From: Candidatus Omnitrophota bacterium | GTDB taxonomy: Bacteria; Omnitrophota; Gorgyraeia; Duberdicusellales; 4484-171 | Direction: 5' to 3' | DNA length: 64,000 nt | Assembly (NCBI GenBank): GCA_016935525.1 | Contig: JAFGQU010000021.1 | Span: forward strand, 15,028 to 79,027 | Shown here: piece after piece, positions 2,652 through 41,411 of the stretch | How positions within the stretch are numbered: position 1 is the first letter of the stretch | Layout: the number at the start of each line of letters is the position of its first letter | The notes under the pieces: generated by a model | The model's database searches: none | Seen by the model: the letters and a program-made list of their open reading frames with translations, nothing else | What the model was told of the DNA's origin: nothing | Translations under genes and position numbers: made by a program

Positions 2652-2783
2652 ACCTCCTTAAATCTCCCGACGAACGTTGGAAGATTGAAAAATATTATTG
2701 TGAAACAGGCGGGAATAAAAACTTCACCTTCACATCGTTTTTCGATTGTATCCGGCCGCTCTATTCCCGCCTATCTCTTCCCG

Positions 2784-4809: not shown

Positions 4810-4841
4810 ATGAACCAGATGACAACCTACGTATCCACCAT

Positions 4842-4949
4842 CTACAGTCTCTGGTCTACGGTCTATGGTCTACGGTCTACGGTCTATGGTCTACGGTCTA
4901 TGGTCTATTGACTACTGACTATCGACCATCAACTATCGACTATCGACGT
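4842..4949. repeat. Heptanucleotide tandem repeat array (YGGTCTA)n followed by (GACTATC)n
   Basis: Reads tctacag tctctgg tctacgg tctatgg tctacgg tctacgg tctatgg ... then gactact gactatc gaccatc aactatc gactatc. Confidence 0.85.
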
Positions 4950-4954
4950 ACCCA

Positions 4955-5923: not shown

Positions 5924-5938
5924 GGGTTTCCTCCTTTG

Positions 5939-15320: not shown

Positions 15321-15325
15321 ATTTT

Positions 15326-17943: not shown

Positions 17944-17957
17944 TTCATCTCCTGTTA

Positions 17958-18073
17958 AATAGGGTAATATTAATTTTATTTTACCCTATTTATATAACAT
18001 ATTACCCTATTTCTGTCAATAGGGTAATTATTGTCAAATATTACCCTATTTATTCATATCATTACCCCATTTT
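17958..18073. promoter_or_regulatory. Array of six copies of the decamer TTACCCTATT (4 direct, 2 inverted) upstream of hsdM
   Basis: The copies are aaatagggtaat, ttaccctattta, attaccctatttc, aatagggtaatta, attaccctattta and attaccccatttt, all in the AT-rich fic-hsdM spacer. Confidence 0.6.
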
Positions 18074-18114
18074 GGTAAGTTCAAAAATTGAATTTACTCA
18101 AATCGTCGTAAATA

Positions 18115-19155
18115 TTACACTTTTTTCCACTTGGCATTACGCCCAATTCCTGTAGATTTTATCTTTCCAGCATCTCTTAAATCTCTCAATACTTTCCTTA
18201 TCATATCGCGGGTCACATTCGGACAAGCCTTTTCTAGTTCTGAAATCGAAAATGGCTTAATAAATCTATTGATTTGGGCGATTATCTGACCTGTCTTAGA
18301 CCTCGTACGCTTAAAAACTCCAACTCTCCCTTCAAATTCTTTATATGCAGCAAGTAACATAGCATGAAAATAATCAAGCCAGGGGAATATATTGTGCTCA
18401 CCTTGATGCCAACCGTTTGAAGAAGCAATAAGAGAATCATAATAACTATCTTTCGACTCTTCAATGATTCGTTCCAAACTTATGTATTTTCCTACACGAT
18501 AACCACATTTGTATAACAATAAAAGGGTTAACAACCGCGCGATCCTCCCGTTCCCATCTTTGAATGGATGAATGCATAGAAAATCAAATATAAACAATGG
18601 GACTAGAATAAGGTGATCATGAATTTCGTCCTCAATATATTTGTTATAAAGCGTGATGGTTTTTTTCATATAATTGGACGTATCTTTTGCGGGTACCGTC
18701 TGGAAACGAATGGTTGTGCTCCCATCAGGATTCTTATCTACAATAGCGTTATCCACTTTTTTCCAAAATCCGGACTTAATAGTTGTATATCGATATAACA
18801 TTGAATGGAATTGCAATATGACATTTTCATCGAGAGGAATATTTTGGTGTGATTGATGGATAAGGTTCAATACATCTTTGTAACCAGCAATTTCTTGTTC
18901 AGGACGGTTACGGGGTTTAGTTTTTTCTTTTACAATATTCTCAATCCTTTTATGCGGTGCCGTTACACCTTCTATCCTATTGGATGCTTCTGTACTTTCT
19001 ACAATCGCACTCTCCAGTAACTTTTCTAATACATCAGGTGACTGTCGAGTATAGAGCTCTTCTTTTCCTTTATATTCTCCTAGTACATGGATTGTCTTTA
19101 ACATTTTTGAATCAAATTTCAATTTTTTTAGATATTTTGACTCTAGCGATTCCAT
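18115..19155 (-). CDS. Fic-family protein (class II, N-terminal inhibitory helix) with C-terminal winged-helix domain
   Basis: 346 aa with the Fic motif HPFKDGNGRIARLL and an upstream [ST]xxxE[GN] inhibitory motif (SNRIEG). The C-terminus is basic and DNA-binding-like. Confidence 0.85.
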   Translation of the reverse strand: MESLESKYLKKLKFDSKMLKTIHVLGEYKGKEELYTRQSPDVLEKLLESAIVESTEASNRIEGVTAPHKRIENIVKEKTKPRNRPEQEIAGYKDVLNLIHQSHQNIPLDENVILQFHSMLYRYTTIKSGFWKKVDNAIVDKNPDGSTTIRFQTVPAKDTSNYMKKTITLYNKYIEDEIHDHLILVPLFIFDFLCIHPFKDGNGRIARLLTLLLLYKCGYRVGKYISLERIIEESKDSYYDSLIASSNGWHQGEHNIFPWLDYFHAMLLAAYKEFEGRVGVFKRTRSKTGQIIAQINRFIKPFSISELEKACPNVTRDMIRKVLRDLRDAGKIKSTGIGRNAKWKKV

Positions 19156-19165
19156 TTCGATCTCC

Positions 19166-21955
19166 TTATACTTTTATACTATTAAAAACTCCTATTATCT
19201 CCTGCAGTTCTTCTTCGGAAAATAACCTTGTAGCTGCATCTATCCCAAACTGGGTAAATGGAGGCTCAAAAAGATCGTCGTATTCAATATGTTTCTTCTT
19301 AGCAAAAACATTCTTTATTGTGCGTAAAAAGCGTATTTGCTCAGCCGTAAGCGCGTAGTGGTTGTTTCTTTCAATAACATAGGTATTAAAGGATTCATTA
19401 ATTATTTCTTCTGGTTCAGGGAATTTATATAAGCCAAGGATGCTCTTTATAAATTGTAAAAAACTACCATAGGGGCAAGCATACGTCTTTCTTAAATTAT
19501 CTTCATTTATATAGAGTTCGGGACTATTTAAGGTATCTTCTAAATCTACCAGGTCTTTGTCGGAAATTGGCTTATTCTGTTTTATTTTGACAAGAGCGGG
19601 ATGCGACTCTGCTAATTCTATGACTCTCTTTTCCACATTCTTTCGATAGCTATACACATAGTCGCCCTCTCCTTCGGGTCCAAATTCTATCCATTTCCTC
19701 TCAATCACTTCATCATCAAGGTCAAGTTTCACAATAGATGGTGGTTCTATCCTTTTATATTTCATTATTTCTGTAAGATTAGTCTTTATGTATTCAATCT
19801 TTTCATAATCAAGTTTATGCCAAAAATCAGAAGATAAAACTTTTATAATATGGCTTTCCTGTTCTTTTACTGCCTTTAGATTGCGCGGCAGACATTTAAT
19901 GTCATTTGTGATGGAAGTTCTGTACTTCTCTAAATCTTCTTTTTTATGGGTGATACAGGCTAAACCAAGATTTTCTACTTTAAGTAAGAATTGGTATTGA
20001 TAAATATTTATATCACTACAACAACGTAACAATGGTGCAATTTCTTGATCGAGAAATTGAATCGATTTAGTATCAACATCATCCCACACCTCTTTAGATA
20101 ATGCCTTATGGATATTACGTAGATTCTCACGAACAGTAATAGAGGGTTCGGGTAAAGATTGAATGTCATTTATGATTTCCTCTTTGACCTTATCAAAATA
20201 AGCTTGGTTAGACTGTCTAAATAGATTGAGCTTCTTTAATCGCACCCTAAATACTTTCACTGGCAAAGCTTCTTGTTGCGCTGGAACTTCGCCTTCTGGT
20301 TTTTCACCAAAATACTGGAAGTTGTTCCAGTGATCTATTATCAAAAATCGATCTTTTTCAATACACCATGATTTCCTTTTTAGCAAATCATCCTCTAATG
20401 TTCGAGTTCCTCGCCCAATCATCTGCCAAAACTTTATTTTGCTAAATACTGGTTTAGCAAACACAAGATTTACAACTTCTCGTATATCAACGCCAGTATC
20501 AAGCATATCTACTGAGATAGCAACACGTGGATAGTTCTCATTTTTGAATTTATCAAGCAGCTTCAGCGGTCTTTCCATCTTCGAATCTATAATATCGACC
20601 AGTTTACCCTGGTACTCTGGATACAATTCATTAAATACCATCCACAATCTTTTTGCATGTTCATGCGAAAGTGCAAATATAATGGATTTACCCGGTACTA
20701 CACCAGAATCATCTTTAAGACATACATCCATAAACTCACGTACTAATGACTCATTTGTACCTAGATTTGTAACCTTTTTTTCCAAATCAGTACCTTCAAA
20801 ATCGATCTCCTCAAGGGTTAACCCTTCTTCAACTAGTTTCTTTTGTATACTTAGCGGCAATTCGTTACCTTTAATTCCTGTAATCTGAAAGTTTGTCTTT
20901 GCAGCATATGGTGGTCGAAAATCAACAAGATACTTATCTTCAATAGCTTGATTGTATGCATAATTAAAAGTGGGGTGCCCATTTTCACAACTAAAAAATT
21001 TAAAAGTATCTCTATCAAGAAAATCGCTGGGAGTCGCAGTTAAACCAATTTGGATGGCATGAAAATAGCTTAGAACATCTTTCCATTTATTATAAATTGA
21101 TCTGTGACACTCATCTGAGATAACTACATCAAAAAATCCTGGAGATACAGAGGAAAAACACCCCATCATTGTCTGAATTGTCGCAACATTCAATCGCTTC
21201 GACTCCTGTAAATCGCCATAGCGTATCCAATGACGAGATTCATTAGGAAGATGCTCTTTAAAATTATCATAAGCCTGTTGCGCTAACGCTTCTCTATCGA
21301 CAAGGAAAAGCACTCTTTGTGCCCATCCTGCTCGGATTAAAACATCTATCAATGCCATAGCTGTTCGTGTTTTCCCTGTGCCAGTTGCCATAACAAGTAG
21401 AAATTTGCGTCTGCTCTTTTGTAAGCCATTAAAAATTCGCTTCAACCCTTCTATCTGGTAATCTCTATTGATAATTTCTGGTTTTATAGGTATTGAATGT
21501 AAATCTTTGCTATGCTCATTCTGATACAGGGTGCGTTCCAAATCTTCACGACTGAAAAATCCATGCACCATAGATGGCGCGTAACGCTGTCTATTCCAAT
21601 ACCATATTTCGTATCCATTCGTTAAAAAGATAAGCGGTTCCCTTCCATATTGTCTTTGTATACCGTCAGCATAGTCCTCGGCCTGCTGTTTTCCTACAAT
21701 TGGATCACGTGAAGTACGCTTTGCTTCTACAATAGCTAAAGGGTCACCAGCACGGTCTAAAAGAAGATAATCAGAAAAACCTGCTGTTTCATATTCCGCT
21801 TCACCATCGGAAATAGGTCGTCGAGTTCCTGCTCCTGCAATTTCAAATTCTGTTAACACGTGAGAATGGTCGTTTATCTGCCAACCAACTTTTTCCAAGC
21901 TTGAGTTTATTATTTTCTTTCTCGTCTGCATTTCTGTAGGATCAATATGATACAT
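19166..21955 (-). CDS. hsdR: Type I restriction enzyme R subunit (helicase/endonuclease)
   Basis: 929 aa with Walker A MATGTGKT and the DEAH box VISDECHRS (SF2 helicase). Confidence 0.9.
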   Translation of the reverse strand: MYHIDPTEMQTRKKIINSSLEKVGWQINDHSHVLTEFEIAGAGTRRPISDGEAEYETAGFSDYLLLDRAGDPLAIVEAKRTSRDPIVGKQQAEDYADGIQRQYGREPLIFLTNGYEIWYWNRQRYAPSMVHGFFSREDLERTLYQNEHSKDLHSIPIKPEIINRDYQIEGLKRIFNGLQKSRRKFLLVMATGTGKTRTAMALIDVLIRAGWAQRVLFLVDREALAQQAYDNFKEHLPNESRHWIRYGDLQESKRLNVATIQTMMGCFSSVSPGFFDVVISDECHRSIYNKWKDVLSYFHAIQIGLTATPSDFLDRDTFKFFSCENGHPTFNYAYNQAIEDKYLVDFRPPYAAKTNFQITGIKGNELPLSIQKKLVEEGLTLEEIDFEGTDLEKKVTNLGTNESLVREFMDVCLKDDSGVVPGKSIIFALSHEHAKRLWMVFNELYPEYQGKLVDIIDSKMERPLKLLDKFKNENYPRVAISVDMLDTGVDIREVVNLVFAKPVFSKIKFWQMIGRGTRTLEDDLLKRKSWCIEKDRFLIIDHWNNFQYFGEKPEGEVPAQQEALPVKVFRVRLKKLNLFRQSNQAYFDKVKEEIINDIQSLPEPSITVRENLRNIHKALSKEVWDDVDTKSIQFLDQEIAPLLRCCSDINIYQYQFLLKVENLGLACITHKKEDLEKYRTSITNDIKCLPRNLKAVKEQESHIIKVLSSDFWHKLDYEKIEYIKTNLTEIMKYKRIEPPSIVKLDLDDEVIERKWIEFGPEGEGDYVYSYRKNVEKRVIELAESHPALVKIKQNKPISDKDLVDLEDTLNSPELYINEDNLRKTYACPYGSFLQFIKSILGLYKFPEPEEIINESFNTYVIERNNHYALTAEQIRFLRTIKNVFAKKKHIEYDDLFEPPFTQFGIDAATRLFSEEELQEIIGVFNSIKV

Positions 21956-21980
21956 AAAAAATAAGCCTCCAATAATATTT

Positions 21981-22706
21981 CTACATCATCCCTGCGTCAG
22001 CAAAACTGAAATGTCGGTTATCTCCTATTATTAAATGATCCAATACTTTTATCCCCATTATCTTACCTGCCTTAATCAACTCTTGATTAAAACGATTATC
22101 GTCAATGCTAGGGTTGCAATCGCCCGAAGGATGGTTATGAACACAGATGATTGCGGCAGCAAAATGCTGCAAGGCTTTCTGGAAAACCTCTCGTATAATT
22201 GGGACGGCTTTGTTAACTGTCCCTTCGGTTATTTCGATGATATCGATGACTCTGTTCTTTGAGTTCAGAAGAATGATTTTGAATACTTCTTTTTTCAGAT
22301 CACGCATGCGCGGCATGAGGATATCAACGACATCTTTTGACGATTTGATCTGAGGCCGATCTTCTTTTACCTCTGTTTCCTTAAACCTCCTGCCTATTTC
22401 TATCGCTGCCTTTATTTGAGCAATCTTAGCTTTTCCTAATCCTTTAATTTCTTCCCATTGGGCTATGTCGGTATGGGCCAGATTACGAAACCCTTTGAAT
22501 TTCTGAAGCACTTTTCGGGAAAGATCGATCGCACTTTCCCCTTTTACCCCGTTACGGATCAAGATCGCCAGCAATTCCGTATCGCTCAGGGTATGCTCTC
22601 CGTTTTTGAACAGTTTTTCCCGGGGTCTATCATCTTCCGGCCAGTTATGTATTGCGGTAGGATACTCTCTATTGCGGCTTTTATACGTAGCTTTCTCTTC
22701 CGACAT
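21981..22706 (-). CDS. radC: RadC-family JAB/MPN domain protein
   Basis: 241 aa with an HhH N-terminus and the JAMM motif HNHPSG. Confidence 0.85.
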   Translation of the reverse strand: MSEEKATYKSRNREYPTAIHNWPEDDRPREKLFKNGEHTLSDTELLAILIRNGVKGESAIDLSRKVLQKFKGFRNLAHTDIAQWEEIKGLGKAKIAQIKAAIEIGRRFKETEVKEDRPQIKSSKDVVDILMPRMRDLKKEVFKIILLNSKNRVIDIIEITEGTVNKAVPIIREVFQKALQHFAAAIICVHNHPSGDCNPSIDDNRFNQELIKAGKIMGIKVLDHLIIGDNRHFSFADAGMM

Positions 22707-29975: not shown

Positions 29976-30305
29976 TTACACCTGACAGCCACACTTTTTG
30001 TTCATTAATATCTTTATTTGCTTTTTACGAGAATCGATGAATACATTCTGCTTCCTGGAACCGGTCGCGAGTTTACGGTTGAGATCACTATAATGGTTAT
30101 ATCCTCTGCTTTTCATTTCGGCAACGAGTGCTTGATGTCGTGCATACAAAGCCGCTAATTTGCCTTTCCATCTAAGGGTCTCGGGATGTTTAGAGTATCC
30201 TTTTTTATTCTTAGTTAAGATCGACCATATCGCGTGCAGTTCTCTATGTTCGCCAAGAAGATGGTTACGACAAAGTTTTTTTGGAGAAATATCCCAGATC
30301 CTCAT
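29976..30305 (-). CDS. Pyrimidine-dimer DNA glycosylase family protein (T4 endonuclease V-like)
   Basis: 109 aa. The N-terminus MRIWDISPKKLCRNHLLGEHRELHAIW parallels the DenV motif LxxQHLxxExREL. Confidence 0.55.
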   Translation of the reverse strand: MRIWDISPKKLCRNHLLGEHRELHAIWSILTKNKKGYSKHPETLRWKGKLAALYARHQALVAEMKSRGYNHYSDLNRKLATGSRKQNVFIDSRKKQIKILMNKKCGCQV

Positions 30306-30406
30306 AATGTTATTCGTTATTTTCTAAAAGAAAACCTTCTGCCCTCTCTTATATCACAGAGATCTAAAGAGTGCAACTTCGGGGGTAGAACACGGAAAAG
30401 CTATTC

Positions 30407-30435
30407 TTGACGCTATAATCCAAATGGGCTATAAT
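30407..30435 (+). promoter_or_regulatory. Sigma70-type promoter upstream of the tRNA-Asn locus
   Basis: TTGACG (30407..30412), a 17-nt spacer, then TATAAT (30430..30435). A second TATAAT lies at 30414..30419. Confidence 0.55.
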
Positions 30436-30506
30436 ACGGTTCTTATAAAGGTAGCAGAACTGTAAGAGTCACCTTCGTTCTTGCATAAAATCGACTAAAC
30501 GTGTAA

Positions 30507-30523
30507 AAATTCCCCGGTAGCTC
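30507..30523 (+). repeat. Partial duplicate of the tRNA-Asn 5' end (aattccccggtagctc) within the tRNA leader
   Basis: Identical 16 nt to 30656..30671. It is followed by an unrelated hairpin cccgag-cgggata-ctcggg. Confidence 0.7.
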
Positions 30524-30659
30524 CCCGAGCGGGATACTCGGGATTAATTCAATTAAGCATTTTTCCTCGTTCACAGTCGAAAAATGCAAGTTTCATTGAA
30601 CAGTCGGTCACCCTCCTTCGCTACCGGAAAAAGCGGAGGAAGCAATGACCTGCATTAAT

Positions 30660-30736
30660 TCCCCGGTAGCTCAGTCGGTATGAGCAACTGACTGTTAATC
30701 AGTGGGTCGTAGGTTCGAGCCCTACCCGGGGAGCCA
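30660..30736 (+). tRNA. tRNA-Asn (anticodon GTT), CCA encoded
   Basis: Cloverleaf: acceptor tccccgg/ccgggga, D-arm gctc/gagc, anticodon stem actga/tcagt with loop ctGTTaa, T-arm gtagg-ttcgagc-cctac, discriminator G and CCA. Confidence 0.85.
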
Positions 30737-30747
30737 TGATAAAAACA

Positions 30748-30779
30748 CCCCCTCTCTTTATGAGAGGGGGTTATTTTTT
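30748..30779 (+). terminator. Intrinsic terminator after tRNA-Asn
   Basis: Hairpin ccccctctc-ttta-gagaggggg followed by ttattttttat. Confidence 0.8.
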
Positions 30780-30780
30780 A

Positions 30781-30975
30781 TCATATGGTTTCCTCCGGAG
30801 GATCGAACCTTGTGCCATGGAAGGCACAAGGGGATGAACTGCGGAGCGAAGCGACCATGAGGTTTGCTCCCTTGGCAGTCCGCGCGAGTCCGACTTTGTC
30901 GGACGGAGCTGCGCGCCCTACCCGGGGAGCCAGAATAAAATATCCCTCGCCCTTTTTGGGTGAGGGATTTTTATT
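30781..30975 (+). repeat. Structured tandem unit A ending in the tRNA-Asn 3' end (ccctacccggggagcca) plus its own terminator
   Basis: Hairpin ccttgtgcc-atggaa-ggcacaagg, a conserved 115-nt core, hairpin gtccgac-ttt-gtcggac, the 3' end gcgccctacccggggagcca at 30932, and terminator 30942..30975. Confidence 0.7.
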
Positions 30976-31163
30976 TCTGACCCTGTGTCGGGTCGAACCT
31001 TGGAGGCGAACCCGACAAGGTGATGAACTGCGGAGCGAAGCGACCATGAGGTTTCTTGCCTTGGCAGTCCGCGCGAGTCCGACTTTGTCGGACGGAGCTG
31101 CGCGCCCTACCCGAGGAGCCGTGACAAAAATACCCCCTCTCGTTATGAGAGGGGGTATTTTTG
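30976..31163 (+). repeat. Structured tandem unit B (about 93% identical core to unit A) with its own terminator
   Basis: Same core, ...gcgccctacccgaggagccg, then terminator accccctctc-gtta-gagagggggt plus a T-run at 31132..31163. Confidence 0.7.
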
Positions 31164-31267
31164 TGTCGTATGGGTTTCCCTCGGTACGCGTGAGGTCCCC
31201 TTTTAAATTCTTTTTCCTTAACCAAAATAATTGTGTTATAATCATTTTCCACACGTAAGGAGGTGAT

Positions 31268-31897
31268 ATGAAATTTGCCTTATTATTGTTACTTCTCTTC
31301 CTTTTCGGCCAACCGGCCGGGGCCCAGAATAAAGCTTACTTGAAAGACGGTAAGATCGTCGTCGAGACGCCCGAAGGCGCCCGTCAACTCGATTATTCGG
31401 CCGATAAAGACGAAACCCGTTACGAGGTGACTAGTCCCGCCGGAAAAAGCTGGAGCGTGCAGAGTGACACAAAAAAGGTGGATGAAGCACTCGGCGTCTA
31501 TATGGAAAAAGGCACCCCGTTATATGAAAAAAACGTGATCATTACCGACGAAGCCGACGGGACTCAAACGATCCATGTCGATTACATCACTAAAAACGAA
31601 AACGAAACAATGCTCTTCTCTCCCGACGGTAATTACGCCTATTACCTGACGACGGCCGAAGACGGGAAAAACAGTATTTACGGGATCAATCTACTTACCA
31701 ATAAAACGTTCTTTATCAGTACGGCAAGCGATTACCGGCTAATCACCTGTACCAACGACCGGACATACCTTGCGTTACGGGCCGGGATAAACAGTACTCT
31801 CTTTATGATCTACGATCTTTCGGGCACCAAAATGGGGTCGGTAGAAAGTACCGACGGATTTTCAGGTATACAGAACGATTTTTGTTTCTCGTTGTAA
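31268..31897 (+). CDS. Secreted hypothetical protein (signal peptide)
   Basis: 209 aa with the leader MKFALLLLLLFLFGQPAGA. Confidence 0.4.
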   Translation: MKFALLLLLLFLFGQPAGAQNKAYLKDGKIVVETPEGARQLDYSADKDETRYEVTSPAGKSWSVQSDTKKVDEALGVYMEKGTPLYEKNVIITDEADGTQTIHVDYITKNENETMLFSPDGNYAYYLTTAEDGKNSIYGINLLTNKTFFISTASDYRLITCTNDRTYLALRAGINSTLFMIYDLSGTKMGSVESTDGFSGIQNDFCFSL

Positions 31898-33097: not shown

Positions 33098-33160
33098 AAA
33101 TAGTCGATAGTCAATAGTCCATGATCCGTAGACCATAGACCGGAAACTAGAGACTGTATC
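33098..33160. repeat. Heptanucleotide tandem repeat array, reverse orientation ((GATAGTC)n then (TAGACCR)n)
   Basis: Reads aaatagtcgatagtcaatagtccatgatccgtagaccatagaccggaaactagagactgtatcc. Confidence 0.8.
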
Positions 33161-33215
33161 CCCTCTATCCGCTCATTGATCCCTTATGGTATAATATCCC
33201 AAAAAGGAGGCTGAT

Positions 33216-33470
33216 ATGGAAGAACAGGAGATCGGAATAGTCGACCATTTCTTTAACAAGATCTCGGTCGGGATGATCAAATTGAGTGACGTACTGAAAG
33301 TAGGCGATACGATCCATATTAAAGGAAAACAGACGGATTTTTCTCAAAAAGTCGAATCGATGCGGATAGAATTCGATAGTGTGAATGAAGCAAAATCAGG
33401 CGATAAGGTCGGTATCAAAGTGTCCCAGCCGCTCCATTCCAACGATACCGTGTATAAAGTGACCGTTTAG
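33216..33470 (+). CDS. Small beta-barrel protein resembling EF-Tu domain 2
   Basis: 84 aa; the stretches GMIKLSDVLKVGDTIHIKG...EAKSGDKVGIKV follow the EF-Tu domain-2 pattern. Confidence 0.4.
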   Translation: MEEQEIGIVDHFFNKISVGMIKLSDVLKVGDTIHIKGKQTDFSQKVESMRIEFDSVNEAKSGDKVGIKVSQPLHSNDTVYKVTV

Positions 33471-33502
33471 GAGATAGCCCGTACAATCACAGGAGAAAAA
33501 CC

Positions 33503-33625
33503 ATGAAAAGTCACGATATAAAAAAAGATGCGAAAAAGAAACCGCAGAAAACACTGAAAGAACGACAAGCCGAAAAACGGTTAAAACGGGAACAGGAAAA
33601 AACCGCACCGGGTTGGAATCAATAA
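33503..33625 (+). CDS. Possible 40-aa Lys/Glu-rich small protein
   Basis: ATG preceded by AGGAG; sequence MKSHDIKKDAKKKPQKTLKERQAEKRLKREQEKTAPGWNQ. It is too short to appear in the ORF track. Confidence 0.2.
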   Translation: MKSHDIKKDAKKKPQKTLKERQAEKRLKREQEKTAPGWNQ

Positions 33626-33636
33626 CGAGAAAGCGG

Positions 33637-33725
33637 ATAGCGACTAGCGGTCAGCGGATAGAGTGAAATAGGGAATTAGCAATGTCCAATTAACAATTAG
33701 CAGTTATCAATGAGAGAAAAAATAA
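33637..33725. repeat. Heptamer-periodic region (AGCGNNN x5 then AATNNNN x6)
   Basis: Reads agcggat agcgact agcggtc agcggat agagtga, then aataggg aattagc aatgtcc aattaac aattagc agttatc. Confidence 0.6.
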
Positions 33726-33847
33726 GGAGGAAAACTCCGGATTTTAAGTTGATAATTGCTAAATGTTCATTTTGCATTAATCATTTATATTAGACGTGGT
33801 CTATGTGACGCGCTTGCCCCGTTGCGTAAACTCACGGAGTATCGTGT

Positions 33848-34192
33848 TTAACGGCCTTTACGGGCGGAATAAGCGAAGGGGAGAAAATAATTTTCCCATG
33901 ATTTGGGGGTGGACGAGTACTGATTCGTTCCGAAAAAGTAGTCGACTAACGCTTCTCTCATACGAGTAATCTCTTTAAGCCGCGGAAAAGTCTGCACATC
34001 AACAAGAGTCAAATCGATAAGTTCTAACGCCCGTTCGGCAGCTTGCCGACAATAAGCATGGTTCTCTTTTGATTGCCATCGGAGCGCCCGACTCACTTCA
34101 CTCCCGATATTCGCCATTTGTTCAAGAAACGGAATCTGTTGCCAACGGCCTTGCGCTAAATTTTTATGCTGATAATTCATGTTTTTATCCAT
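33848..34192 (-). CDS. Hypothetical protein with HEPN-like Rx6H motif
   Basis: 114 aa with RALRWQSKENH. It overlaps the upstream gene by 16 nt. Confidence 0.3.
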   Translation of the reverse strand: MDKNMNYQHKNLAQGRWQQIPFLEQMANIGSEVSRALRWQSKENHAYCRQAAERALELIDLTLVDVQTFPRLKEITRMREALVDYFFGTNQYSSTPKSWENYFLPFAYSARKGR

Positions 34193-34518
34193 TGAGAGAT
34201 GATTTCAACGATTTTCTTACGGGTCTGTTCATTCTCTACACTGCGGCTGCTATTGCCCTGAGCCGGACGCATATTGATCATCGAATCGTATTCAATAAAA
34301 TCTTCTTGCGGCATATCCGGATAAAGGTTGATTCCCCAAAGATTCTTTTGGTCTGCCCCATCGTCTAACAGTAATGCTTCTAAATCCGAATGCAGTTCGG
34401 CATCAAGCGCGACAATCCCCCGTTCAATATCGACAACCGCTTTCACCATGTTGCCGAACATTGCTCCGGATATCTTCCTGAGCTCTTCAATAGATAACAT
34501 GTCTCTGATGATTTTCAT
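34177..34518 (-). CDS. Hypothetical protein (upstream partner of the HEPN-like ORF)
   Basis: 113 aa, acidic. Confidence 0.3.
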   Translation of the reverse strand: MKIIRDMLSIEELRKISGAMFGNMVKAVVDIERGIVALDAELHSDLEALLLDDGADQKNLWGINLYPDMPQEDFIEYDSMINMRPAQGNSSRSVENEQTRKKIVEIISQWIKT

Positions 34519-35004
34519 GTCATTTTCCTTTAAAAATATCCGTCAATTATAATACCTGACTTACTCTATCCTTGCAAGGGAAAGAGTTCAGTCTATAATC
34601 TAGAGTATTTAATCTTTAGTGGAAAATTAATACATCAAAAAAAATAATGTAGACTGTCGACGGATGACGTAGGGCGAGTGTTTATCTCGTAGTGGTCGTT
34701 TTGTCTTCTTTTTTCTTCTTCCGCGGAGTGGCCGAGGTCGGCGGCAGGTCTTTATCGATCATGCGTTGATGGATGTTACAATATGCGTTTTCGTTGTACA
34801 TGCTCAACACGTTCTTACAGCCGTGATATTTGCAGATACGCCCTTTTTCGTATGAAGTGACTTTCTTGATACATCCTCCTTGGTTGCTTCAATTATACCA
34901 CTAAACACCTCCGTAAAGTAAACTATGTTCGATCTGCCGATCACGAAAAAAAAGCGGCGGGATATCCCGCCGCTTTTGTCTCATCGCAGATAACCCGGCC
35001 GATA

Positions 35005-35538
35005 TTATTTCATCGTCTTAGAAGGCACCTGTATCGGCGGTTTAGGAACTGCCGGTTGCGATGTCGGCGTAGTTCCCGGTTTCATCGATGAAGATGTTGA
35101 GGGCATCGGCGGTTTTGCGGGAGTCGCCGGGATCGCCGAACTCGTCGGCATCACTGGTTGCGGTCGGACCGTAACCGGTCTTACCATTTTTTGAGTCTTC
35201 GCTTTCAGCGAACTTACTTTTTTCCTCCCGAACAGCCCGGCACTGTACTCTAAAGAAACCTGATCATCGGGCATTAACGCGGCGATATCCATTTTCTTTC
35301 CGTCTTTCTCGATCGGGGTCGATCGGTTCAGTTTGAACACGATCTCTTGTGCATCTTTGGCATCGGGCTGTACGGTGATAGTCGATTTTTCCGTATCGAT
35401 CACCGTGATCTTTCCGGCTACCTTTTCTACGGTCGCCGCTGCAGCCAGGATTTCGGGAGACGAAAACCCTCCGCCTACCAATCCTGCTACCAGGACCAGA
35501 ATCAACCAGAATCTTACCTCACCTCGCATATTCCCCAC
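35005..35538 (-). CDS. Secreted protein with Pro/Thr/Ser-rich C-terminal region
   Basis: 177 aa with an N-terminal TM/signal sequence and a low-complexity PxP tail. Confidence 0.4.
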   Translation of the reverse strand: MGNMRGEVRFWLILVLVAGLVGGGFSSPEILAAAATVEKVAGKITVIDTEKSTITVQPDAKDAQEIVFKLNRSTPIEKDGKKMDIAALMPDDQVSLEYSAGLFGRKKVSSLKAKTQKMVRPVTVRPQPVMPTSSAIPATPAKPPMPSTSSSMKPGTTPTSQPAVPKPPIQVPSKTMK

Positions 35539-36046
35539 CCTCCTTCCTTAAGAGCCTCTTTATGCACTCATCCTGATTTTGCCGCCGCAGAAGAGACTCT
35601 TTCCCTTTAATAAGGCGGCTTTTTTACTGTTTGTATCCGAATACAGTATACTCTCCGCACACAAAAGGAACATAGAAAAAGAAACTATTTTTTCGTTCGA
35701 CACGTCTATTCGATTTTATGGAAACCGCCTGTTTAACCGCTTGCTGAACAAGGGGTTATAAACCCTATTTCTCTTGCAGACAAAAACCCTTGAGGTACAA
35801 TCTATCTTAGATCATACAGTCCATAAAAACAAAGAGATTCCCATGACAATACAATACCTGTTATCGAATAATATGGTTCTACGTGACATCATTTTACAGG
35901 ATCAGTCCAGCACTGATGACCGCACCCACCTGATCCATTATTATTACCTTACCCATTCCAGTAAGAGCCCCCCTGTGTTTCTCTCTCTTTTCTAATGTGC
36001 CGCTCCTGGTACACAAAAAAACACGTCAGTATAAAGAAGGAAACTT

Positions 36047-36406
36047 ATGAGAATTTTAATATCTTTAATCAGTCTCGCTCTTGCTGTGTTCCTCTGTGTG
36101 GGCTGGAGCCAGATGGGGAACGACCAGCAACCCACACCACAGGTGAAAACACAAAAAATAGATGCAAAACAGATCCTGAAAGATTCTGAAGGAATCGTGA
36201 CGGAAATATCGCCCCAGGAGATCGTCATTGAAAAAGAAGATTATACCGGAGAAGAAGAAAGTTATACGATCGATCCTCAGGTAAAAATCGAATCTACCGA
36301 TTCACTTGACGATATCGGAGTCGGCGATATGGTCTCGGTAAAATACGTAACGGATAAAGATAAAAAAATCGTAAAAGTGATCCGGGTCGAAGAATTCAAT
36401 CACTGA
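36047..36406 (+). CDS. Secreted hypothetical protein
   Basis: 119 aa with a signal peptide. Confidence 0.4.
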   Translation: MRILISLISLALAVFLCVGWSQMGNDQQPTPQVKTQKIDAKQILKDSEGIVTEISPQEIVIEKEDYTGEEESYTIDPQVKIESTDSLDDIGVGDMVSVKYVTDKDKKIVKVIRVEEFNH

Positions 36407-36461
36407 TCAGCGAAACCGGTAGCGGGATATACCTTATAGAGAGAAATAAAAAGGAGCCTAT

Positions 36462-36659
36462 ATGGAAACGTTCAGTGACCTGCAGAGATCGAAATATTCA
36501 CAGGAAGATCTCGATAAAATACGTACCAAAGCATATTATATCTGGGAACAGAAGGGAAAACCGACGACAGAAAGCGCGTTAGATCACTGGTTACAAGCCG
36601 AACGGGAACTGCGCCGGGCCGGTATGATCTCAAAAAAAGAGAGTAAAAAAGGGTTCTAA
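36462..36659 (+). CDS. DUF2934-family protein
   Basis: 65 aa containing AYYIWEQKGKP...HWLQAERE. Confidence 0.6.
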   Translation: METFSDLQRSKYSQEDLDKIRTKAYYIWEQKGKPTTESALDHWLQAERELRRAGMISKKESKKGF

Positions 36660-36788
36660 CAATATCATACTATCCGAAAAAGAAATGAGGTAATACCATG
36701 ATAAACAAATTCGATAAGAAAAAACCGCTCTCACCACAACCACCACAACCGGGCCAATCTAAACCATGTTGCTCATAGATCACAAAAG

Positions 36789-36823
36789 ATATATGGAGCA
36801 GGATTTTTTCCTGCTCCATATAT
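36789..36823. terminator. Perfect 14-bp palindromic hairpin ATATATGGAGCAGG-attttt-CCTGCTCCATATAT
   Basis: Lies immediately after a 26-codon ORF and 10 nt before the next gene. Confidence 0.5.
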
Positions 36824-36832
36824 CAATATTTT

Positions 36833-37165
36833 ATGAACTATATCGCGAATAACGGTTACATAAAGGGAAACGGCACCGTCCGTTCTCTATGTATGGAAAA
36901 ACTTAAAGAAAAATCTCAAATAAAAAAAGAACAGATAAAACCGTCTTGTGAAGCGAAACTCATCGTACCGGCTGACGCCTATCAAACTCCGGTCAGTTAT
37001 AGCGTAGGCTGGCTCACTCTTGTGATGGCGTGTATCCCGATCCTGTTCGGCCTGGTAGAAGGAAAAAAGACCGCTCTCGGGATCGGACTGATTCTTATTG
37101 CGATCAGCGTAATAGCTTTTGCGATAGGGTACCGACATAACAAGTCCAAGAAAACACAAAAATAG
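36833..37165 (+). CDS. Small membrane protein (hypothetical)
   Basis: 110 aa with 2 TM segments in the C-terminal half. Confidence 0.35.
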   Translation: MNYIANNGYIKGNGTVRSLCMEKLKEKSQIKKEQIKPSCEAKLIVPADAYQTPVSYSVGWLTLVMACIPILFGLVEGKKTALGIGLILIAISVIAFAIGYRHNKSKKTQK

Positions 37166-37183
37166 AGAAAGACATCGCGTGCG

Positions 37184-37513
37184 ATGAAAACAATCATTCT
37201 CCTCTGTATATCGAACATATTCATGACGATCGCCTGGTACGGCCATCTGAAATACAAAAGTGCGCCGCTGGTGACGGTAATCTTCGTCAGTTGGGGGATT
37301 GCCTTCGCCGAATACTGTTTCCAGGTACCGGCAAACCGTATCGGACATGCGACGTTCACTGCCGCGCAGTTAAAGACGATACAGGAAGTGATCACACTTG
37401 CCGTATTCTGCGCGTTTTCCCTGATCTACCTTAAAGAAGAGATCCGCTGGAACTATCTGGTAGGATTCGCTTTTATCGCGCTTGCGGTATTCTTTATATT
37501 CAAGAAATGGTAA
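37184..37513 (+). CDS. DMT-superfamily small membrane protein (DUF486)
   Basis: 109 aa; SNIFMTIAWYGHLKYK is typical of the DUF486/DMT small family. Confidence 0.6.
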   Translation: MKTIILLCISNIFMTIAWYGHLKYKSAPLVTVIFVSWGIAFAEYCFQVPANRIGHATFTAAQLKTIQEVITLAVFCAFSLIYLKEEIRWNYLVGFAFIALAVFFIFKKW

Positions 37514-37649
37514 AAATGACTTAGTCCCACTCCGAAAAAATATGTTCGTTTGATGACAAAGACACTCCCTCCCTCCAAAAACAAGAAGAAGCAATCTACT
37601 CCTATATAAAAACATTGACATTATACCGGTAAAATCTAAAATATTCTCT

Positions 37650-37985
37650 ATGAACCTTCGGCTTCTTCGTACATTATTGATACTAGCGTTCGTATCGATA
37701 GCCGCGGTTGGACAATCCGTATACGCGACCGATACGCCGCTGTTATCGGAAACGGAAAAAGAGATAGAACTGCGTAAAATAGAACTATTTCAAGGACATT
37801 GCGATGAAAGGATCAAACAGCAATCGCAAGAGGTATCGTCAGTCATCTTAAACGATCAGGCCCGCAGGTCCGCGGTCATTACCGATCATTCTTGTCTTTT
37901 TTCCAATATACCTAAAGATTTTTTTATATTCTCTTCAAAATCGTGTATCCATTCTCCTCCCTGCTGTTACTCACCTTTTTGTTGA
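37650..37985 (+). CDS. Secreted Cys-rich hypothetical protein
   Basis: 111 aa with a signal peptide; weakly supported. Confidence 0.3.
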   Translation: MNLRLLRTLLILAFVSIAAVGQSVYATDTPLLSETEKEIELRKIELFQGHCDERIKQQSQEVSSVILNDQARRSAVITDHSCLFSNIPKDFFIFSSKSCIHSPPCCYSPFC

Positions 37986-38043
37986 TGGATCTTTCAATTT
38001 CATTGGGTAGTTTCAGTAAAAATCAGGAGTGAGAACCATGTGA

Positions 38044-38352
38044 GTGATCATAATGCACAATAACGATGAATATCTTAAACTCGCGTCACGTCTGGCCGAA
38101 CAATGTGCCGCGAAGATCGTCACGATAGACAAACCGGGCATAGGATCGGCAGTAAAAGGCCTGCAGATAGGATTTGTCCTGTCGCACGGGCAGATCATGA
38201 GCGTCTATCACAAAGCGTTAGCGGTATTCTTAAAAGACGAAGCATCGGTCAATGCACTGTTTACGATGATGAGGTCTGACCGGGAACTGGACCGATTGAG
38301 CCTGGAAGATGAAGGATTTATCTGTAATGTTCCGCTAGAATGTGCCGCATAG
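38044..38352 (+). CDS. Hypothetical protein (possible DRTGG-like domain) upstream of the CBS/EIIA gene
   Basis: 102 aa; its stop overlaps the next ORF. Confidence 0.3.
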   Translation: MIIMHNNDEYLKLASRLAEQCAAKIVTIDKPGIGSAVKGLQIGFVLSHGQIMSVYHKALAVFLKDEASVNALFTMMRSDRELDRLSLEDEGFICNVPLECAA

Positions 38353-39295
38353 AAAAAAGAAAAGACTAAAGATGGCAAAACTCACTAATTATGTCCATTA
38401 CGGAGCGATAGTCGATAATCTGGTACCACAAAATAAATATCAAGTGATAAAGATCCTGCTCGATAAACTGTTCGAGTTCTATCCGGATATCGTCCTGAAT
38501 AAAGACGATGTCCTGGCCGCGGTGACCGAACGGGAAGACAGCCAGACGACCGGGATCGGCGCGGGCCTGGCGTTTCCGCATGCCCGTATCGAGAATTGGC
38601 AGGGATTATCGGTCGTCGTCGGGATATGTAAAGACGGGACGGATTTCGAAAGTGTCGACAATATCCCGGTGAAGATGGTATTTCTCATGATTTCCTCTCC
38701 CGACGATTCTTACGCGATCTTAAAGACCATGGCCGGGATCGCGCGGTTTTTCCGGGAAACCGGAGAAAATATCGATTCGTTTATCAACCAGTGTTTTGCC
38801 GAAGGAGGTATTTTCGCTCAGTTAAATAAAAATAATAAAGAGACCGAAAAACAGATCACCGCAAACGATATCGTCCGGCCAGTCCAGAACGTCGTCTCGA
38901 TAGATACTTCTATTGAAGAAGCAACCCAGACCATGCATTTAAACCATCTTGACGTGTTGCCGGTCATAGACGAACACGGCAGGTTTTGCGGAGAACTTTC
39001 CTGTATCGATATCTTTAATTACGAGATGCCCCATTTTTTCAGCCAGTTACAGACCGTATCGTTTGTAAGACACATCGATCCGTTTGAAAAATATTTCCGG
39101 ATAAAACGTGACCTGAAAGTAAAAGATTTTTACCGTAAAGGCCCAAAAGCGTTACGAGCGGACGCGACATTACTTGAGATCGTGTTTGAACTTACCGTAA
39201 AAAACCGCTCGACCGTGTTTGTCGTCGATGGTGACGACCGGTTTATCGGTGCGATAGACCGGTTCTGTATCGTGGATAAAATACTGTTTTTTTAG
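38342..39295 (+). CDS. PTS EIIA(Ntr/Fru)-type domain protein with tandem CBS domains
   Basis: EIIA-2 motifs TGIGAGLAFPHAR, then two CBS repeats. The start may be the second ATG at 38372. Confidence 0.6.
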   Translation: MPHRKKKRLKMAKLTNYVHYGAIVDNLVPQNKYQVIKILLDKLFEFYPDIVLNKDDVLAAVTEREDSQTTGIGAGLAFPHARIENWQGLSVVVGICKDGTDFESVDNIPVKMVFLMISSPDDSYAILKTMAGIARFFRETGENIDSFINQCFAEGGIFAQLNKNNKETEKQITANDIVRPVQNVVSIDTSIEEATQTMHLNHLDVLPVIDEHGRFCGELSCIDIFNYEMPHFFSQLQTVSFVRHIDPFEKYFRIKRDLKVKDFYRKGPKALRADATLLEIVFELTVKNRSTVFVVDGDDRFIGAIDRFCIVDKILFF

Positions 39296-39306
39296 AAGGA
39301 GAGATC

Positions 39307-40599
39307 ATGAAAGCTTTTCTCTCGATCGCTATATTCGTTATCGCTTATTTCTTTATTGCGACCGAAAAGGTCAATAAAACCATCGTTACGATACTGGGCG
39401 CGTGTTGCGTACTATTTTTAAATCTGGTCACGTTCCCGGAGGCGGTGGCGGCGGTCGATTTTAACGTCATATTCCTGCTGGTCGGGATGATGACCTGTGT
39501 CCATATATTATCAAAAACCGGGTTCTTTGAATGGGTTGCCGTAAGTATCGCCAAATATACTAAAGGGAACCCTTACGGAATCATGGTGTTACTGGTTACG
39601 GCTACCGCGGTGCTCTCCTCCGTCCTTGATAACGTGACGACGATCATCCTTTTAGTACCGGTCACGATATTGATCATGCAGCTTTTAGAGATCGATCCGG
39701 TACCATTTATTATATTGGAAGCGATCGCATCCAACATCGGCGGTACCGCGACTCTGATCGGTGATCCCCCGAATATCATCATCGGGTCCCGGGCAAACCT
39801 GTCGTTTAACGATTTCCTGTTCAATCTAGGTCCGGTGATAGTACTGGTATTCGCGTTTTTTCTTTTAACGATCTTCCTCGCGTTCAGAAACCGGTTCCAG
39901 GTGAGCCGGCAGATAAAAGGGCGGGTAATTAATGCCATACCAAGCCTGGCGATCACTGATTTTCCGAGAATGAGAAAAGCGTTAATAATCTTAGCGGTAA
40001 TGTTTATCATGTTTTTCTTGCATGAACTCATCGGATTACAGCCGGGAGTCATCGCGCTCGGCGGAAGCATGGTCATGTTGCTTGCCTGCCGTATCGAGAG
40101 TGACGAGACGTTGATGCGGGTCGAATGGGGTGTCATATTCTTTTTTATCGGTATGTTTATGATCATCTCGGCACTGGAAGTCAACGGAGTGATGTCGCTC
40201 ATTAGTAACAGCGTCATGATGATGGCCGGAAAAAACCTGCTGATCCTCTGTTTTGTAGTCATGTGGGGCGCGGCATTGCTTTCCTCGGTTCTCGATAACA
40301 TCCCGTTTGTCATCGCGATGGTCCCGCTGGTAAAACAGTTTATTACCCATTTCACGTTAGAAAATCCCGGTATGCACTATGCCGCGGTCGCTGAACCGTT
40401 ATGGTGGGCATTGGCTCTGGGTGCCTGTTTAGGCGGGAACGGTACGATCATCGGTTCTTCGGCAAACATCATCATGGCCAAGATAAGTGAGAAAAACGAA
40501 TGTCCGGTGACCTTTAAACGGTTCTTCAAATACGGGGTTTCCTTTACTATTCAATCTCTCCTGATCTGTAGCGTATATCTTTGGTTACGCTATTTTTAA
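39307..40599 (+). CDS. ArsB/NhaD-superfamily anion/citrate permease
   Basis: 430 aa with about 12 TMs and the duplicated motif SSVLDNVTTIILLVP / SSVLDNIPFVIAMVP. Confidence 0.7.
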   Translation: MKAFLSIAIFVIAYFFIATEKVNKTIVTILGACCVLFLNLVTFPEAVAAVDFNVIFLLVGMMTCVHILSKTGFFEWVAVSIAKYTKGNPYGIMVLLVTATAVLSSVLDNVTTIILLVPVTILIMQLLEIDPVPFIILEAIASNIGGTATLIGDPPNIIIGSRANLSFNDFLFNLGPVIVLVFAFFLLTIFLAFRNRFQVSRQIKGRVINAIPSLAITDFPRMRKALIILAVMFIMFFLHELIGLQPGVIALGGSMVMLLACRIESDETLMRVEWGVIFFFIGMFMIISALEVNGVMSLISNSVMMMAGKNLLILCFVVMWGAALLSSVLDNIPFVIAMVPLVKQFITHFTLENPGMHYAAVAEPLWWALALGACLGGNGTIIGSSANIIMAKISEKNECPVTFKRFFKYGVSFTIQSLLICSVYLWLRYF

Positions 40600-40636
40600 T
40601 GTTTCATCTTTCATTTTTCCTCTAATCCTCCACATC

Positions 40637-40652
40637 AAGTGAAAAAATTCAC
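40637..40652. promoter_or_regulatory. Rex-operator-like palindrome GTGAA-aaaa-TTCAC (distal)
   Basis: Reads agtgaaaaaattcact, matching the Rex consensus TTGTGAAnnnnTTCACAA. Confidence 0.5.
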
Positions 40653-40747
40653 TAAAATAGCTATTTCTTAATTATTTGTAAGTAATTGGTTACCAATGCT
40701 TAACGTAAAAAACCCTTAATTTTCAAAAAATATCCCTAAAATGCCTC

Positions 40748-40791
40748 TTGACAAACTTCTCAAAAAGTTCTATACTGTGAAATAATTCACT
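40748..40791 (+). promoter_or_regulatory. rex promoter (TTGACA-17-TATACT) with an overlapping Rex box TGTGAAATAATTCACT
   Basis: -35 at 40748..40753, -10 at 40771..40776, and the Rex box at 40776..40791 directly downstream of the -10. Confidence 0.55.
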
Positions 40792-40799
40792 TAAAAACT

Positions 40800-41411
40800 A
40801 TGAAAGATCTGTCAAACAATACAATCGAACGTATCTGTAAAATATTCGGGTATCTCGATGCTCTTCAGAAAAAAGAAATCGGGTTTATCTCCTCAAGGGA
40901 ACTGGCTCAAGGGTTAGGTACCACCGAATATACCGTACGTAAAGATCTTAGCACCCTGGGCGTAACCGGGCATACCCGACGGGGATATGACGTGAAACTG
41001 TTAAAAACCCAGTTAGGCGAAAAGCTGCATCTCACCCAGAAACGTAAAGCCGGTATCGTAGGACTGGGCAGACTCGGGACGGCATTACTTGATTACGAGA
41101 AGTTTAAAGTCGACGGATTCGAGATCGTTGCCGGATTCGATTGCAGTATTAATAAGTTGGAACGTATCCGTACCCAGATCGATGTGTTCAGCGTGAACGA
41201 TCTCAAACGGGTAGTCGCCGAACGGCATATCGAACTGGGTATTATCGCCGTACCGGAGGCTGCCGCGCAAAATGTTGCCGATACATTATGCGCGGCCGGC
41301 GTGAAAGGAATTTTGAATTTTTCACCGGTAAAAGTGACCGTTCCCGAAGGGATCGTCTATCTTGATATGGATTTTACCAACGCGTTACGGTTCATCGCAG
41401 CGCGGTTATAA
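40800..41411 (+). CDS. rex: Redox-sensing transcriptional repressor Rex
   Basis: 203 aa with a winged helix followed by a Rossmann NADH-binding domain (GIVGLGRLG). Confidence 0.85.
   Translation: MKDLSNNTIERICKIFGYLDALQKKEIGFISSRELAQGLGTTEYTVRKDLSTLGVTGHTRRGYDVKLLKTQLGEKLHLTQKRKAGIVGLGRLGTALLDYEKFKVDGFEIVAGFDCSINKLERIRTQIDVFSVNDLKRVVAERHIELGIIAVPEAAAQNVADTLCAAGVKGILNFSPVKVTVPEGIVYLDMDFTNALRFIAARL

Follow-up and report, generated by a model that had tools for sequence, protein, structure and literature searches.

Two tandem structured repeats follow the single transfer RNA (tRNA) gene of a 64-kb stretch of DNA from a Candidatus Omnitrophota bacterium (contig JAFGQU010000021.1; hereafter the window, in whose positions coordinates are given unless the handle of another locus precedes them), and each of them ends in a copy of the 3' end of that tRNA-Asn gene, followed by a terminator. 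The question raised by this locus is whether such units are genes for small RNAs (sRNAs) or traces of mobile DNA. Both answers had been put forward in a first-pass annotation, as tRNA-like sRNAs with 3' CCA ends and as stacked attachment-site scars, respectively. The second answer largely stands, on account of large serine recombinase (LSR) genes that abut the 3' end of tRNA-Asn elsewhere and of occupied modules in a related genome, with the amendment that the recombinase is of the serine type rather than a classical tyrosine integrase and that none lies inside the window. The units are thus probably DNA-level attachment-site modules of serine-recombinase islands that dock at the 3' end of tRNA-Asn, whereas the idea of tRNA-mimicking sRNAs is unsupported, the evidence counting against an RNA gene.

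The tRNA was called with ARAGORN and Rfam, the latter also being used for other RNA families; the gene is tRNA-Asn(GTT), with an encoded CCA and no intron. The repeated segment comprises its last 18 nt, which are nt 59-76 in tRNA numbering, and the repeat therefore begins in the T-loop, right after A58. A 17-mer of this segment, GCCCTACCCGRGGAGCC, occurs three times in the 64 kb (at 30719, 30915, and 31104) against 0.01 occurrences expected by chance. The copy in unit 1 matches the tRNA at 18/18 bases; that in unit 2 does so at 16/18, with a G to A change in the acceptor strand and a change of CCA to CCG. The locus as described in the first-pass annotation is thus confirmed. Behind every copy lie an A-rich tract and an intrinsic terminator, giving three terminator-like hairpins (T0, T1, and T2, at 30747-30771, 30942-30968, and 31135-31155) in a region where nine terminators were called and 1.9 would be expected; the likeness between T0 and T2 is about 82%, and T1 is unrelated in sequence to either. 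The two tandem units, 30781-30975 and 30976-31163, are present as originally delimited, each with its own terminator, and are 87% identical overall, 85% identical over a 147-nt register, and 95.6% identical over a 91-nt core, with array spacings of 196 and 189 nt. Further copies of the spacer or core, direct or inverted, are absent from the window, and a 30-mer core probe is confined to the two units. Each terminator is trailed by a sequence that copies the tRNA 3' end and T-loop imperfectly and in inverted orientation, written TGGTTTCCTCCGG-AGGATCGAACCTT at 30786-30811, GGGTCGAACCTT at 30990-31001, and, truncated, TGGGTTTCCCTCGG at 31171-31184, which resembles 30786-30798. The features of the locus, all on the plus strand, are as follows:

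30407..30435, plus strand: sigma-70-type promoter TTGACG-17-TATAAT, which drives the leader and tRNA-Asn (consensus scan, 11/12 positions, in agreement with the promoter first proposed here)
30499..30523, plus strand: 5' stub in the leader, made up of upstream flank and tRNA nt 1-13 (direct repeat D3), with a small hairpin next to it
30660..30736, plus strand: tRNA-Asn(GTT), intact (ARAGORN; Rfam RF00005, 67.9 bits)
30719..30736, plus strand: putative B half-site, tRNA nt 59-76, GCCCTACCCGGGGAGCCA (sequence)
30737..30780, plus strand: A-rich tract and bidirectional terminator T0 (stem 30747-30771), the putative B' side of the first attachment site (both-strand terminator scan)
30781..30914, plus strand: unit 1 spacer, containing the inverted motif 30786-30811 (TGGTTTCCTCCGGAGGATCGAACCTT), hairpin P1 at 30806-30829, and the shared core at 30826-30914 (inverted repeats I10 and I8; unit alignment; fold z = -5.1, both strands)
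30915..30932, plus strand: direct repeat 1, GCCCTACCCGGGGAGCCA, 18/18 against tRNA nt 59-76
30933..30975, plus strand: A-rich tract and intrinsic terminator T1 (stem 30942-30968; terminator scan)
30976..31103, plus strand: unit 2 spacer, containing the T-loop-like inverted motif GGGTCGAACCTT (30990-31001) and the shared core (31015-31103)
31104..31121, plus strand: direct repeat 2, GCCCTACCCGAGGAGCCG, 16/18 against the tRNA 3' end
31122..31166, plus strand: A-rich tract and bidirectional terminator T2, with perfect 18-nt arms at 31124-31141 and 31147-31164 (repeats I1, I2, and D1; terminator scan)
31167..31200, plus strand: truncated start of a third spacer (direct repeat D5; alignment)

The mirror-image open reading frames (ORFs) noticed across the units at the outset, and taken then to be spurious, are two of 157 aa on opposite strands, which stay open because the 189-nt period equals 63 codons; protein coding was rejected, as neither ORF matches a Pfam family and their likeness to recombinase C-termini is limited to the stretch antisense to the tRNA.

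LSR islands repeatedly use the 3' end of tRNA-Asn for integration, in Omnitrophota and in other phyla. LSR genes adjoin this 3' end in 11 fetched loci, nine of them independent (L126 repeats L125, and L128 is counted once). In L044, L054, L072, L108, L101, L064, L113, L125/L126, and L127, which belong to Omnitrophota, Krumholzibacteriia, and metagenome-assembled genomes (MAGs) labelled Planctomycetia or simply "bacterium", the gene lies antisense to tRNA-Asn and abuts or overlaps its 3' end. The proteins carry Resolvase, Recombinase, and Zn_ribbon_recom domains (Pfam), and their ORFs (e.g., L054 6368-7996, L044 3831-5429, L128 181-1776 and 4701-6332, and L127 10001-11680) terminate in W-L-P-(G/R); because the codons for these residues are read from the strand opposite the tRNA acceptor 3' strand and CCA, the stop codon falls inside the tRNA or a tRNA-like fragment. 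The L054 ORF (P0127, 542 aa), for example, ends in W-L-P-G-stop, the antisense of CTACCCGGGGAGCCA, and other C-terminal tails read WLPRVP, WLPREG..., and the like. In L113 (4447-6045, minus strand), a mechanically called LSR ORF continues across the terminator and through all of the antisense tRNA-Asn, so that it reads ...ARTYDLLVNSQPLYQLSYRG..., an example of how antisense-tRNA frames inflate ORF calls at such junctions. The islands at tRNA-Asn in L125-L127 contain type I restriction-modification and TIR-domain genes; L125 1-9905 and L127 1-9916 hold hsdR, hsdM, hsdS, a gene for a TIR-domain protein, and, beside the recombinase, a small HTH_17/MerR-like gene that may encode a directionality factor. 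These islands look like defence islands.

An occupied version of such modules is seen in L128 (Omnitrophica GCA_016196545.1), wherein two LSR islands each lie exactly at the 3' edge of a module. In the orientation of the tRNA, the end of tRNA-Asn (...GCGGGGGAG|AC) is followed by a terminator, GGTTTTCCCCCGCG (an inverted acceptor strand), a spacer of about 50 nt, and AGGGCACGCGGGGGAGCCA, a fragment that resembles a tRNA 3' end and shares bases with the stop codon of the recombinase gene LSR2, after which come four small genes; the second part consists of ...cacGGGGAGAC, the same terminator, spacer, and fragment, and then LSR1. The two copies of this 118-nt module are identical at 118/118 positions, and each fragment overlaps an LSR stop codon. 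Immediately to the right of the fragment stands CCAAT.CAT.CTCT.ATCAAAC, which is recombinase C-terminal coding region and is found likewise in islands that directly abut the tRNA; this shared sequence favours a history in which the L128 islands integrated into chromosomal fragment sites.

The order of parts in the window (tRNA 3' end, A-rich tract, terminator, T-run, and inverted motif) aligns among its three copies and those of L128, L082, L021, and L105, with 30737-30780 aligning to the equivalent segments of these four loci. In L082, L105, and, in degenerate form, L021, tRNA-Asn is followed by a terminator, an inverted T-loop-like motif where present, a spacer of 40-210 nt, and a copy of the tRNA 3' end that starts at nt 58/59. 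L021 and the window units have GGATCGAACCTT, the first hairpin, and collinear blocks in common; apart from these blocks, the spacers are lineage-specific in length and sequence. Downstream 3' fragments are moreover sporadic, occurring at four of about 16 Omnitrophota-type loci, and this distribution, together with the lineage-specific spacers, fits an insertion history better than a conserved gene. A scan of a genome collection with the shared 3'-end pattern yielded 102 loci, wherein 86 of the 108 pattern matches are tRNA-Asn genes. Synteny, followed by means of a Pyr_excise gene and a 209-aa gene as anchors, showed the tRNA neighbourhood to be unconserved, the contig of the closest relative stopping short of the locus. 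Two short motifs recur as well: a 16-nt motif, CCGAGGACGAGAGTCC, which forms a GGAC-GAGA-GTCC hairpin, is common to the L021 unit (~2672-2690, minus strand) and a region after tRNA-Asn in a viral contig (L119 ~1305-1330), and GAGTCC is found again in the spacers of the window, L082, and L128.

A module architecture of this type extends to other tRNAs in L074, a Coriobacteriia MAG (WQXX01000003.1), in which one unit follows each of tRNA-Thr, tRNA-Met, and tRNA-Asn (2020-2353 on the minus strand, 4657-4985, and 5040-5340). The three spacers share a core of about 110 nt at 82-92% identity, and every unit has, at its left, the cognate T-stem and T-loop in inverted orientation and, at its right, the cognate segment from T-loop to CCA; at tRNA-Thr the pattern forms a tandem of 1.4 copies.

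Among characterized systems, the closest are the ssrA-specific islands of Dehalococcoides, in which a serine recombinase of about 540 aa, DsiB, is encoded on the reverse strand beside attL and insertion occurs inside the T-loop, producing a 20-bp direct repeat of the 3' end (McMurdie et al., 2011; PMC3146451). Many of these islands stand in tandem, some without an integration module, and extra bases are conserved just upstream of each repeat (PMC3146451). It is because the anatomy of the window matches that of these islands that its units are read as cargo-less attachment-site modules: a direct repeat of the target's 3' end starts in the T-loop (18 bp here, 20 bp there), repeat-bounded segments are arranged in tandem (two complete and a truncated third in the window, with an occupied version in L128), extra conserved bases are found just upstream of each repeat, and related Omnitrophota loci carry an antisense LSR of about 540 aa at the tRNA 3' end, a likeness judged by anatomy. 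Unlike in the ssrA islands, the target is tRNA-Asn rather than transfer-messenger RNA (tmRNA), the LSR ORFs of Omnitrophota end inside the antisense tRNA, and the segments of the window are 189-196 bp long, gene-less, and terminator-bearing, with no recombinase in the window.

Other arrays of this sort have been described in different settings. Staphylococcal cassette chromosome (SCC) elements dock at rlmH (orfX) by way of the serine recombinases CcrAB or CcrC and include ccr-less pseudo-SCC and composite arrays. They resemble the present locus in the docking of serine recombinases at the 3' end of a conserved gene, in the repeats that bound tandem cassettes, and in the lack of a recombinase in some of these; their target is a protein gene, however, and their cassettes are kilobases in size, with cargo and no tRNA-derived half-site. 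Cis-mobilizable elements (CIMEs), which are att-flanked, recombinase-less, kilobase-sized remnants of integrative and conjugative elements of the tyrosine-recombinase type, undergo tandem accretion with neighbouring elements. The window units are likewise flanked by att-type repeats and encode no recombinase, and their mobility is putative; unlike CIMEs, they are far from kilobase size. As to a possible origin by deletion from an autonomous element, they share only module architecture with L128, and their core was found in no fetched island or searched collection. Tyrosine-integrase islands at tRNA genes reportedly include a T-loop sublocation class, defined by Williams in 2002, with which the window has in common the direct repeat of the tRNA 3' end from the T-loop and the displaced 3' end downstream; the neighbouring recombinases are nevertheless of the serine type, and no tyrosine integrase adjoins tRNA-Asn in the examined loci. 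On inspection of the sequence, no T-stem-like inverted core site stands immediately 5' of the window repeats. The array, which has counterparts outside this one genome, is thus most likely of a known kind, the direct-repeat arrays of serine-recombinase islands at tRNA-like genes, in an unusual form: miniature, empty, terminator-bearing, and situated at the tRNA-Asn of a little-studied phylum.

How such an array may have formed can be outlined from the module itself, in which an A-rich tract with its terminator, a short inverted tRNA-like motif, a spacer of 100-130 nt, and a copy of tRNA nt 59-76 follow one another, so that the junction between tRNA 3' fragment and A-rich tract plus terminator recurs three times and would reproduce the natural attB. 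Islands akin to those at tRNA-Asn of other Omnitrophota would have entered by a crossover located within the T-loop or immediately 3' of it, and each new arrival would have moved the older 3' end, along with its terminator, farther downstream. Loss of the island bodies would have come later, through site-specific excision at an alternative tRNA-like site or through deletion; by another route, the module could have been duplicated through unequal exchange. Either route would leave cargo-less segments of about 190 bp between direct repeats. The array, now empty, may still present three landing sites, two of which would spare the functional tRNA, and its modules may accordingly be either scars of past events or duplicated, usable attB sites. 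We infer that the units of the window arose by, or serve, LSR recombination.

Several observations weigh against this reading. A tblastn search of the 64-kb window with two LSRs returned no LSR gene or remnant, and no recombinase was found within the 8-kb L074 locus, despite its three tRNAs with analogous modules. The search for the core and for neighbouring integrases proposed in the first-pass annotation had a divided outcome, in that LSR genes do occur at related tRNA-Asn loci, whereas the 115-nt core is absent from the fetched LSR islands and from the phage, plasmid, viral, and Joint Genome Institute (JGI) metagenome collections that were searched. Searched by blastn, the phage and plasmid collections contain nothing that matches the unit sequence; the viral scans gave only phage tRNA-Asn genes or chance coding matches, and a JGI metagenome scan with a 20-mer of the core gave three matches, all by chance within coding regions. 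An attP of phage or plasmid origin was rejected as the source of the units, given these blastn results and the want of a true match in the viral scans. The core is also better conserved between the units (95.6%) than T0 and T2 are (about 82%), and gene conversion or some constraint is therefore needed. The inverted tRNA-like motif after each terminator is unaccounted for by the model, as is the 5' stub in the leader by integration at the 3' end; the motif, which in each of four loci (the window, L128, L082, and L074) varies with the sequence of the cognate tRNA, may either act as a half-site for a recombinase or prolong the palindrome of the terminator. Finally, L128 is open to two readings, one with a chromosomal and one with an island-borne module.

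The alternative that survives best, though rather unlikely, is plain tandem duplication, whereby the segment from T-loop through terminator was duplicated with its native spacer by illegitimate recombination and then amplified or homogenized by unequal crossing-over or gene conversion, with neither a site-specific recombinase nor a function. It accords with the periodicity of the array, with the truncated third spacer that closes it, and with the 1.4-copy tandem pattern at the L074 tRNA-Thr; furthermore, T0 is like T2 and 31171-31184 is like 30786-30798 (D5, I1), and these likenesses therefore suggest a higher-order repeat of about 385 nt. Random breakpoints would differ from case to case, however, whereas the junction is at the T-loop in every case seen (the window, L082, L105, and all three L074 tRNAs); the module edges in L128 are the ends of LSR islands, and a single spacer family stands behind three tRNAs in L074, each time with matching ends. 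Duplication is partly compatible with attachment-site modules, as the way in which the array grew. A reverse-transcriptase stop at m1A58 was also tried as a source of the 18-nt repeat and rejected, as it suits the window and does not suit L074, where the repeats start at nt 54/55.

It is unlikely that the units are attB "landing pads" maintained as arrays, each made up of a tRNA 3' half-site, a terminator, and an inverted tRNA-like motif matched to the cognate tRNA, or that they form a new class of miniature modules aimed at the T-loop; of this small probability, a lesser part goes to RNAs that mimic the tRNA end. Were the landing pads real, several recombinase-borne defence islands could stack behind one tRNA and never recombine inside the functional gene, and the Coriobacteriia locus L074 would mark a wider, undescribed class of modules with cognate inverted and direct T-loop brackets.

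That the units encode small structured RNAs which imitate, at their 3' ends, the acceptor end of tRNA-Asn is decidedly improbable. In such an RNA, the 5' end of unit 1 (UCCUCCGG-A-GGAGG) can be predicted to pair with the 3' end (CCUAC-CCGGGGA-G-CCA) in a "minihelix" of acceptor and T-stem, the spacer taking the place of the T-loop, and the product could be a substrate of RNase P or the CCA-adding enzyme, a decoy, or an antisense partner of the tRNA. Points in favour are the fold of unit 1, which is much stronger than that of shuffles (z = -5.1), the separate terminator of either unit, a core that agrees between the units at 95.6% of positions although their flanks differ, and a hairpin P1 still able to pair after a G-C to A-U change in L021; a weak -35/-10 pair read by eye (TTTATG, 16 nt, TATCAT; 30757-30784) would start transcription at the 5' strand of the minihelix. 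Yet the opposite strand folds equally well (z = -5.2) and unit 2 poorly (z = -1.9), the promoter scan made no call before either unit, neither unit 2 nor L021, L082, or L105 has the closing helix, and the unit interiors cannot be aligned between lineages. The covariation analysis of the hairpins called for at the outset was run with RNAalifold on the two window units and L021, the sole recognizable homologue, and gave an unfavourable covariation term of +3.29, with a compensatory change in hairpin P1 only. At gathering threshold, Rfam recognized only the tRNA in the window locus, and a permissive scan added no valid family. The lone lead, sbcD RNA (RF01757), was rejected: it matched unit 2 only, below threshold (28.6 bits, E = 0.0019, against a gathering score of 40), left unit 1 and the related units of L074, L021, L082, and L105 unmatched, and owed much of its score to the terminator; comparable sub-threshold matches on related units are terminator look-alikes. 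ARAGORN called neither a tmRNA nor a second tRNA in the window. A tRNA-like gene on the minus strand (GGTTCGATCC...CCA) was likewise discarded, ARAGORN and Rfam being silent, its T-stem unpaired, and no space for a promoter being left between the terminators.

Very improbable is the notion that the units are decayed extra copies of tRNA-Asn, perhaps once with a group I intron whose debris makes up the middle. Such introns do occur in relatives of Omnitrophota type: in eight of them, a group I intron splits tRNA-Asn(GTT) in the anticodon loop (Rfam RF00028, 78-101 bits; L015 1359-1561, L020 2868-3110, L021 2848-3122, L044 3559-3781, L054 6131-6334, L059 3016-3260, L065 7302-7557, and L072 2223-2478), whereas the gene of the window is intron-less. 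An HNH endonuclease ORF lies inside the L021 intron, and a search of full texts brought up no publication describing a bacterial tRNA-Asn with a group I intron. Unit 1 starts with the tRNA-5'-like TTCCTCCGG and finishes with the 3' end, a weak tRNA similarity continues for 17 nt upstream of the exact repeat (12/17 positions; D1), and tandem tRNA-Asn genes exist in L033 and L045. Nevertheless, Intron_gpI went unmatched even at E up to 10, BLAST of the unit interior against the introns of the eight relatives gave no similarity, the 5' strand is absent from unit 2, and L128 and L074 are left unexplained; some short motifs appear alike by eye, but intron debris was set aside on the Rfam and BLAST results.

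As for the assembly, an independent Logan assembly of SRR13394437 breaks at the repeat, with contig L001 ending at about 30723 and contig L002 starting at about 31083; it confirms the outer junctions of the array, the copy number lying outside that confirmation. A repeat-induced misjoin in the MAG that turned one copy into an array is scarcely credible, for, although this short-read assembly from the same run breaks at both repeat edges, the copies are 13% different with distinct terminators and are therefore not collapsed or duplicated reads, L002 joins the unit-2-specific variant to the core and the downstream gene, and comparable arrays are found in the unrelated assemblies L082, L105, L128, and L074.

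The leader stub may lie outside the process that made the 3' units. Its resemblance to the tRNA start is exact over 16 nt, as first described (30508-30523; three flank bases and tRNA nt 1-13), and amounts to 84% identity across 25 nt (30499-30523 against 30648-30672). In four genomes, a 5' stub composed of upstream flank and the first 12-24 nt of tRNA-Asn precedes the intact gene by 130-310 nt (the window at 30499-30523, L044 at ~3401-3416, L054 at ~5917-5929, and L082 at ~202-225). The L054 stub lies directly behind a TTGACG/TATAAT promoter, and a GIY-YIG nuclease ORF (218-520) comes next after that of L082. One idea for the origin of the stubs is double-strand-break repair after cleavage by a homing endonuclease.

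In the wider window, the locus occupies a divergent intergenic region (30305-31268), with large ORFs on the minus strand to its left and on the plus strand immediately to its right, and the GC skew shifts there from clearly negative to about zero. The G+C content of 14000-22000 is 0.35, much lower than the value of about 0.46 elsewhere, and this drop suggests horizontal acquisition of genes. A segment of about 7.7 kb (33100-40800), holding small ORFs, DUF5674, a PTS-EIIA/CBS protein, and a CitMHS transporter, is absent from the contig of the closest relative (L006 1937-2185; 78% protein identity), wherein a Rex-like gene directly follows a 64-aa gene.

For annotation practice, the locus is a warning that structured, terminator-ended repeats with tRNA-like 3' ends are not necessarily sRNA genes. 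The cognate T-loop brackets of L074 and L082 and the conserved 5' stubs fall outside the textbook picture of integration, and the restriction-modification and TIR-type cargo of the L125 and L127 islands is relevant to the biology of defence islands. If the reading of the units as empty attachment-site modules is correct, the window would offer an unusually clean empty hotspot, with three near-identical docking sites in 500 bp, each with a terminator; these would be natural attB candidates for a family of serine recombinases of about 540 aa and would thus bear on the discovery of recombinase tools. Most broadly, tRNA-Asn would then be a hotspot of serine-recombinase integration in Omnitrophota, a phylum about which nearly all knowledge comes from metagenomes.

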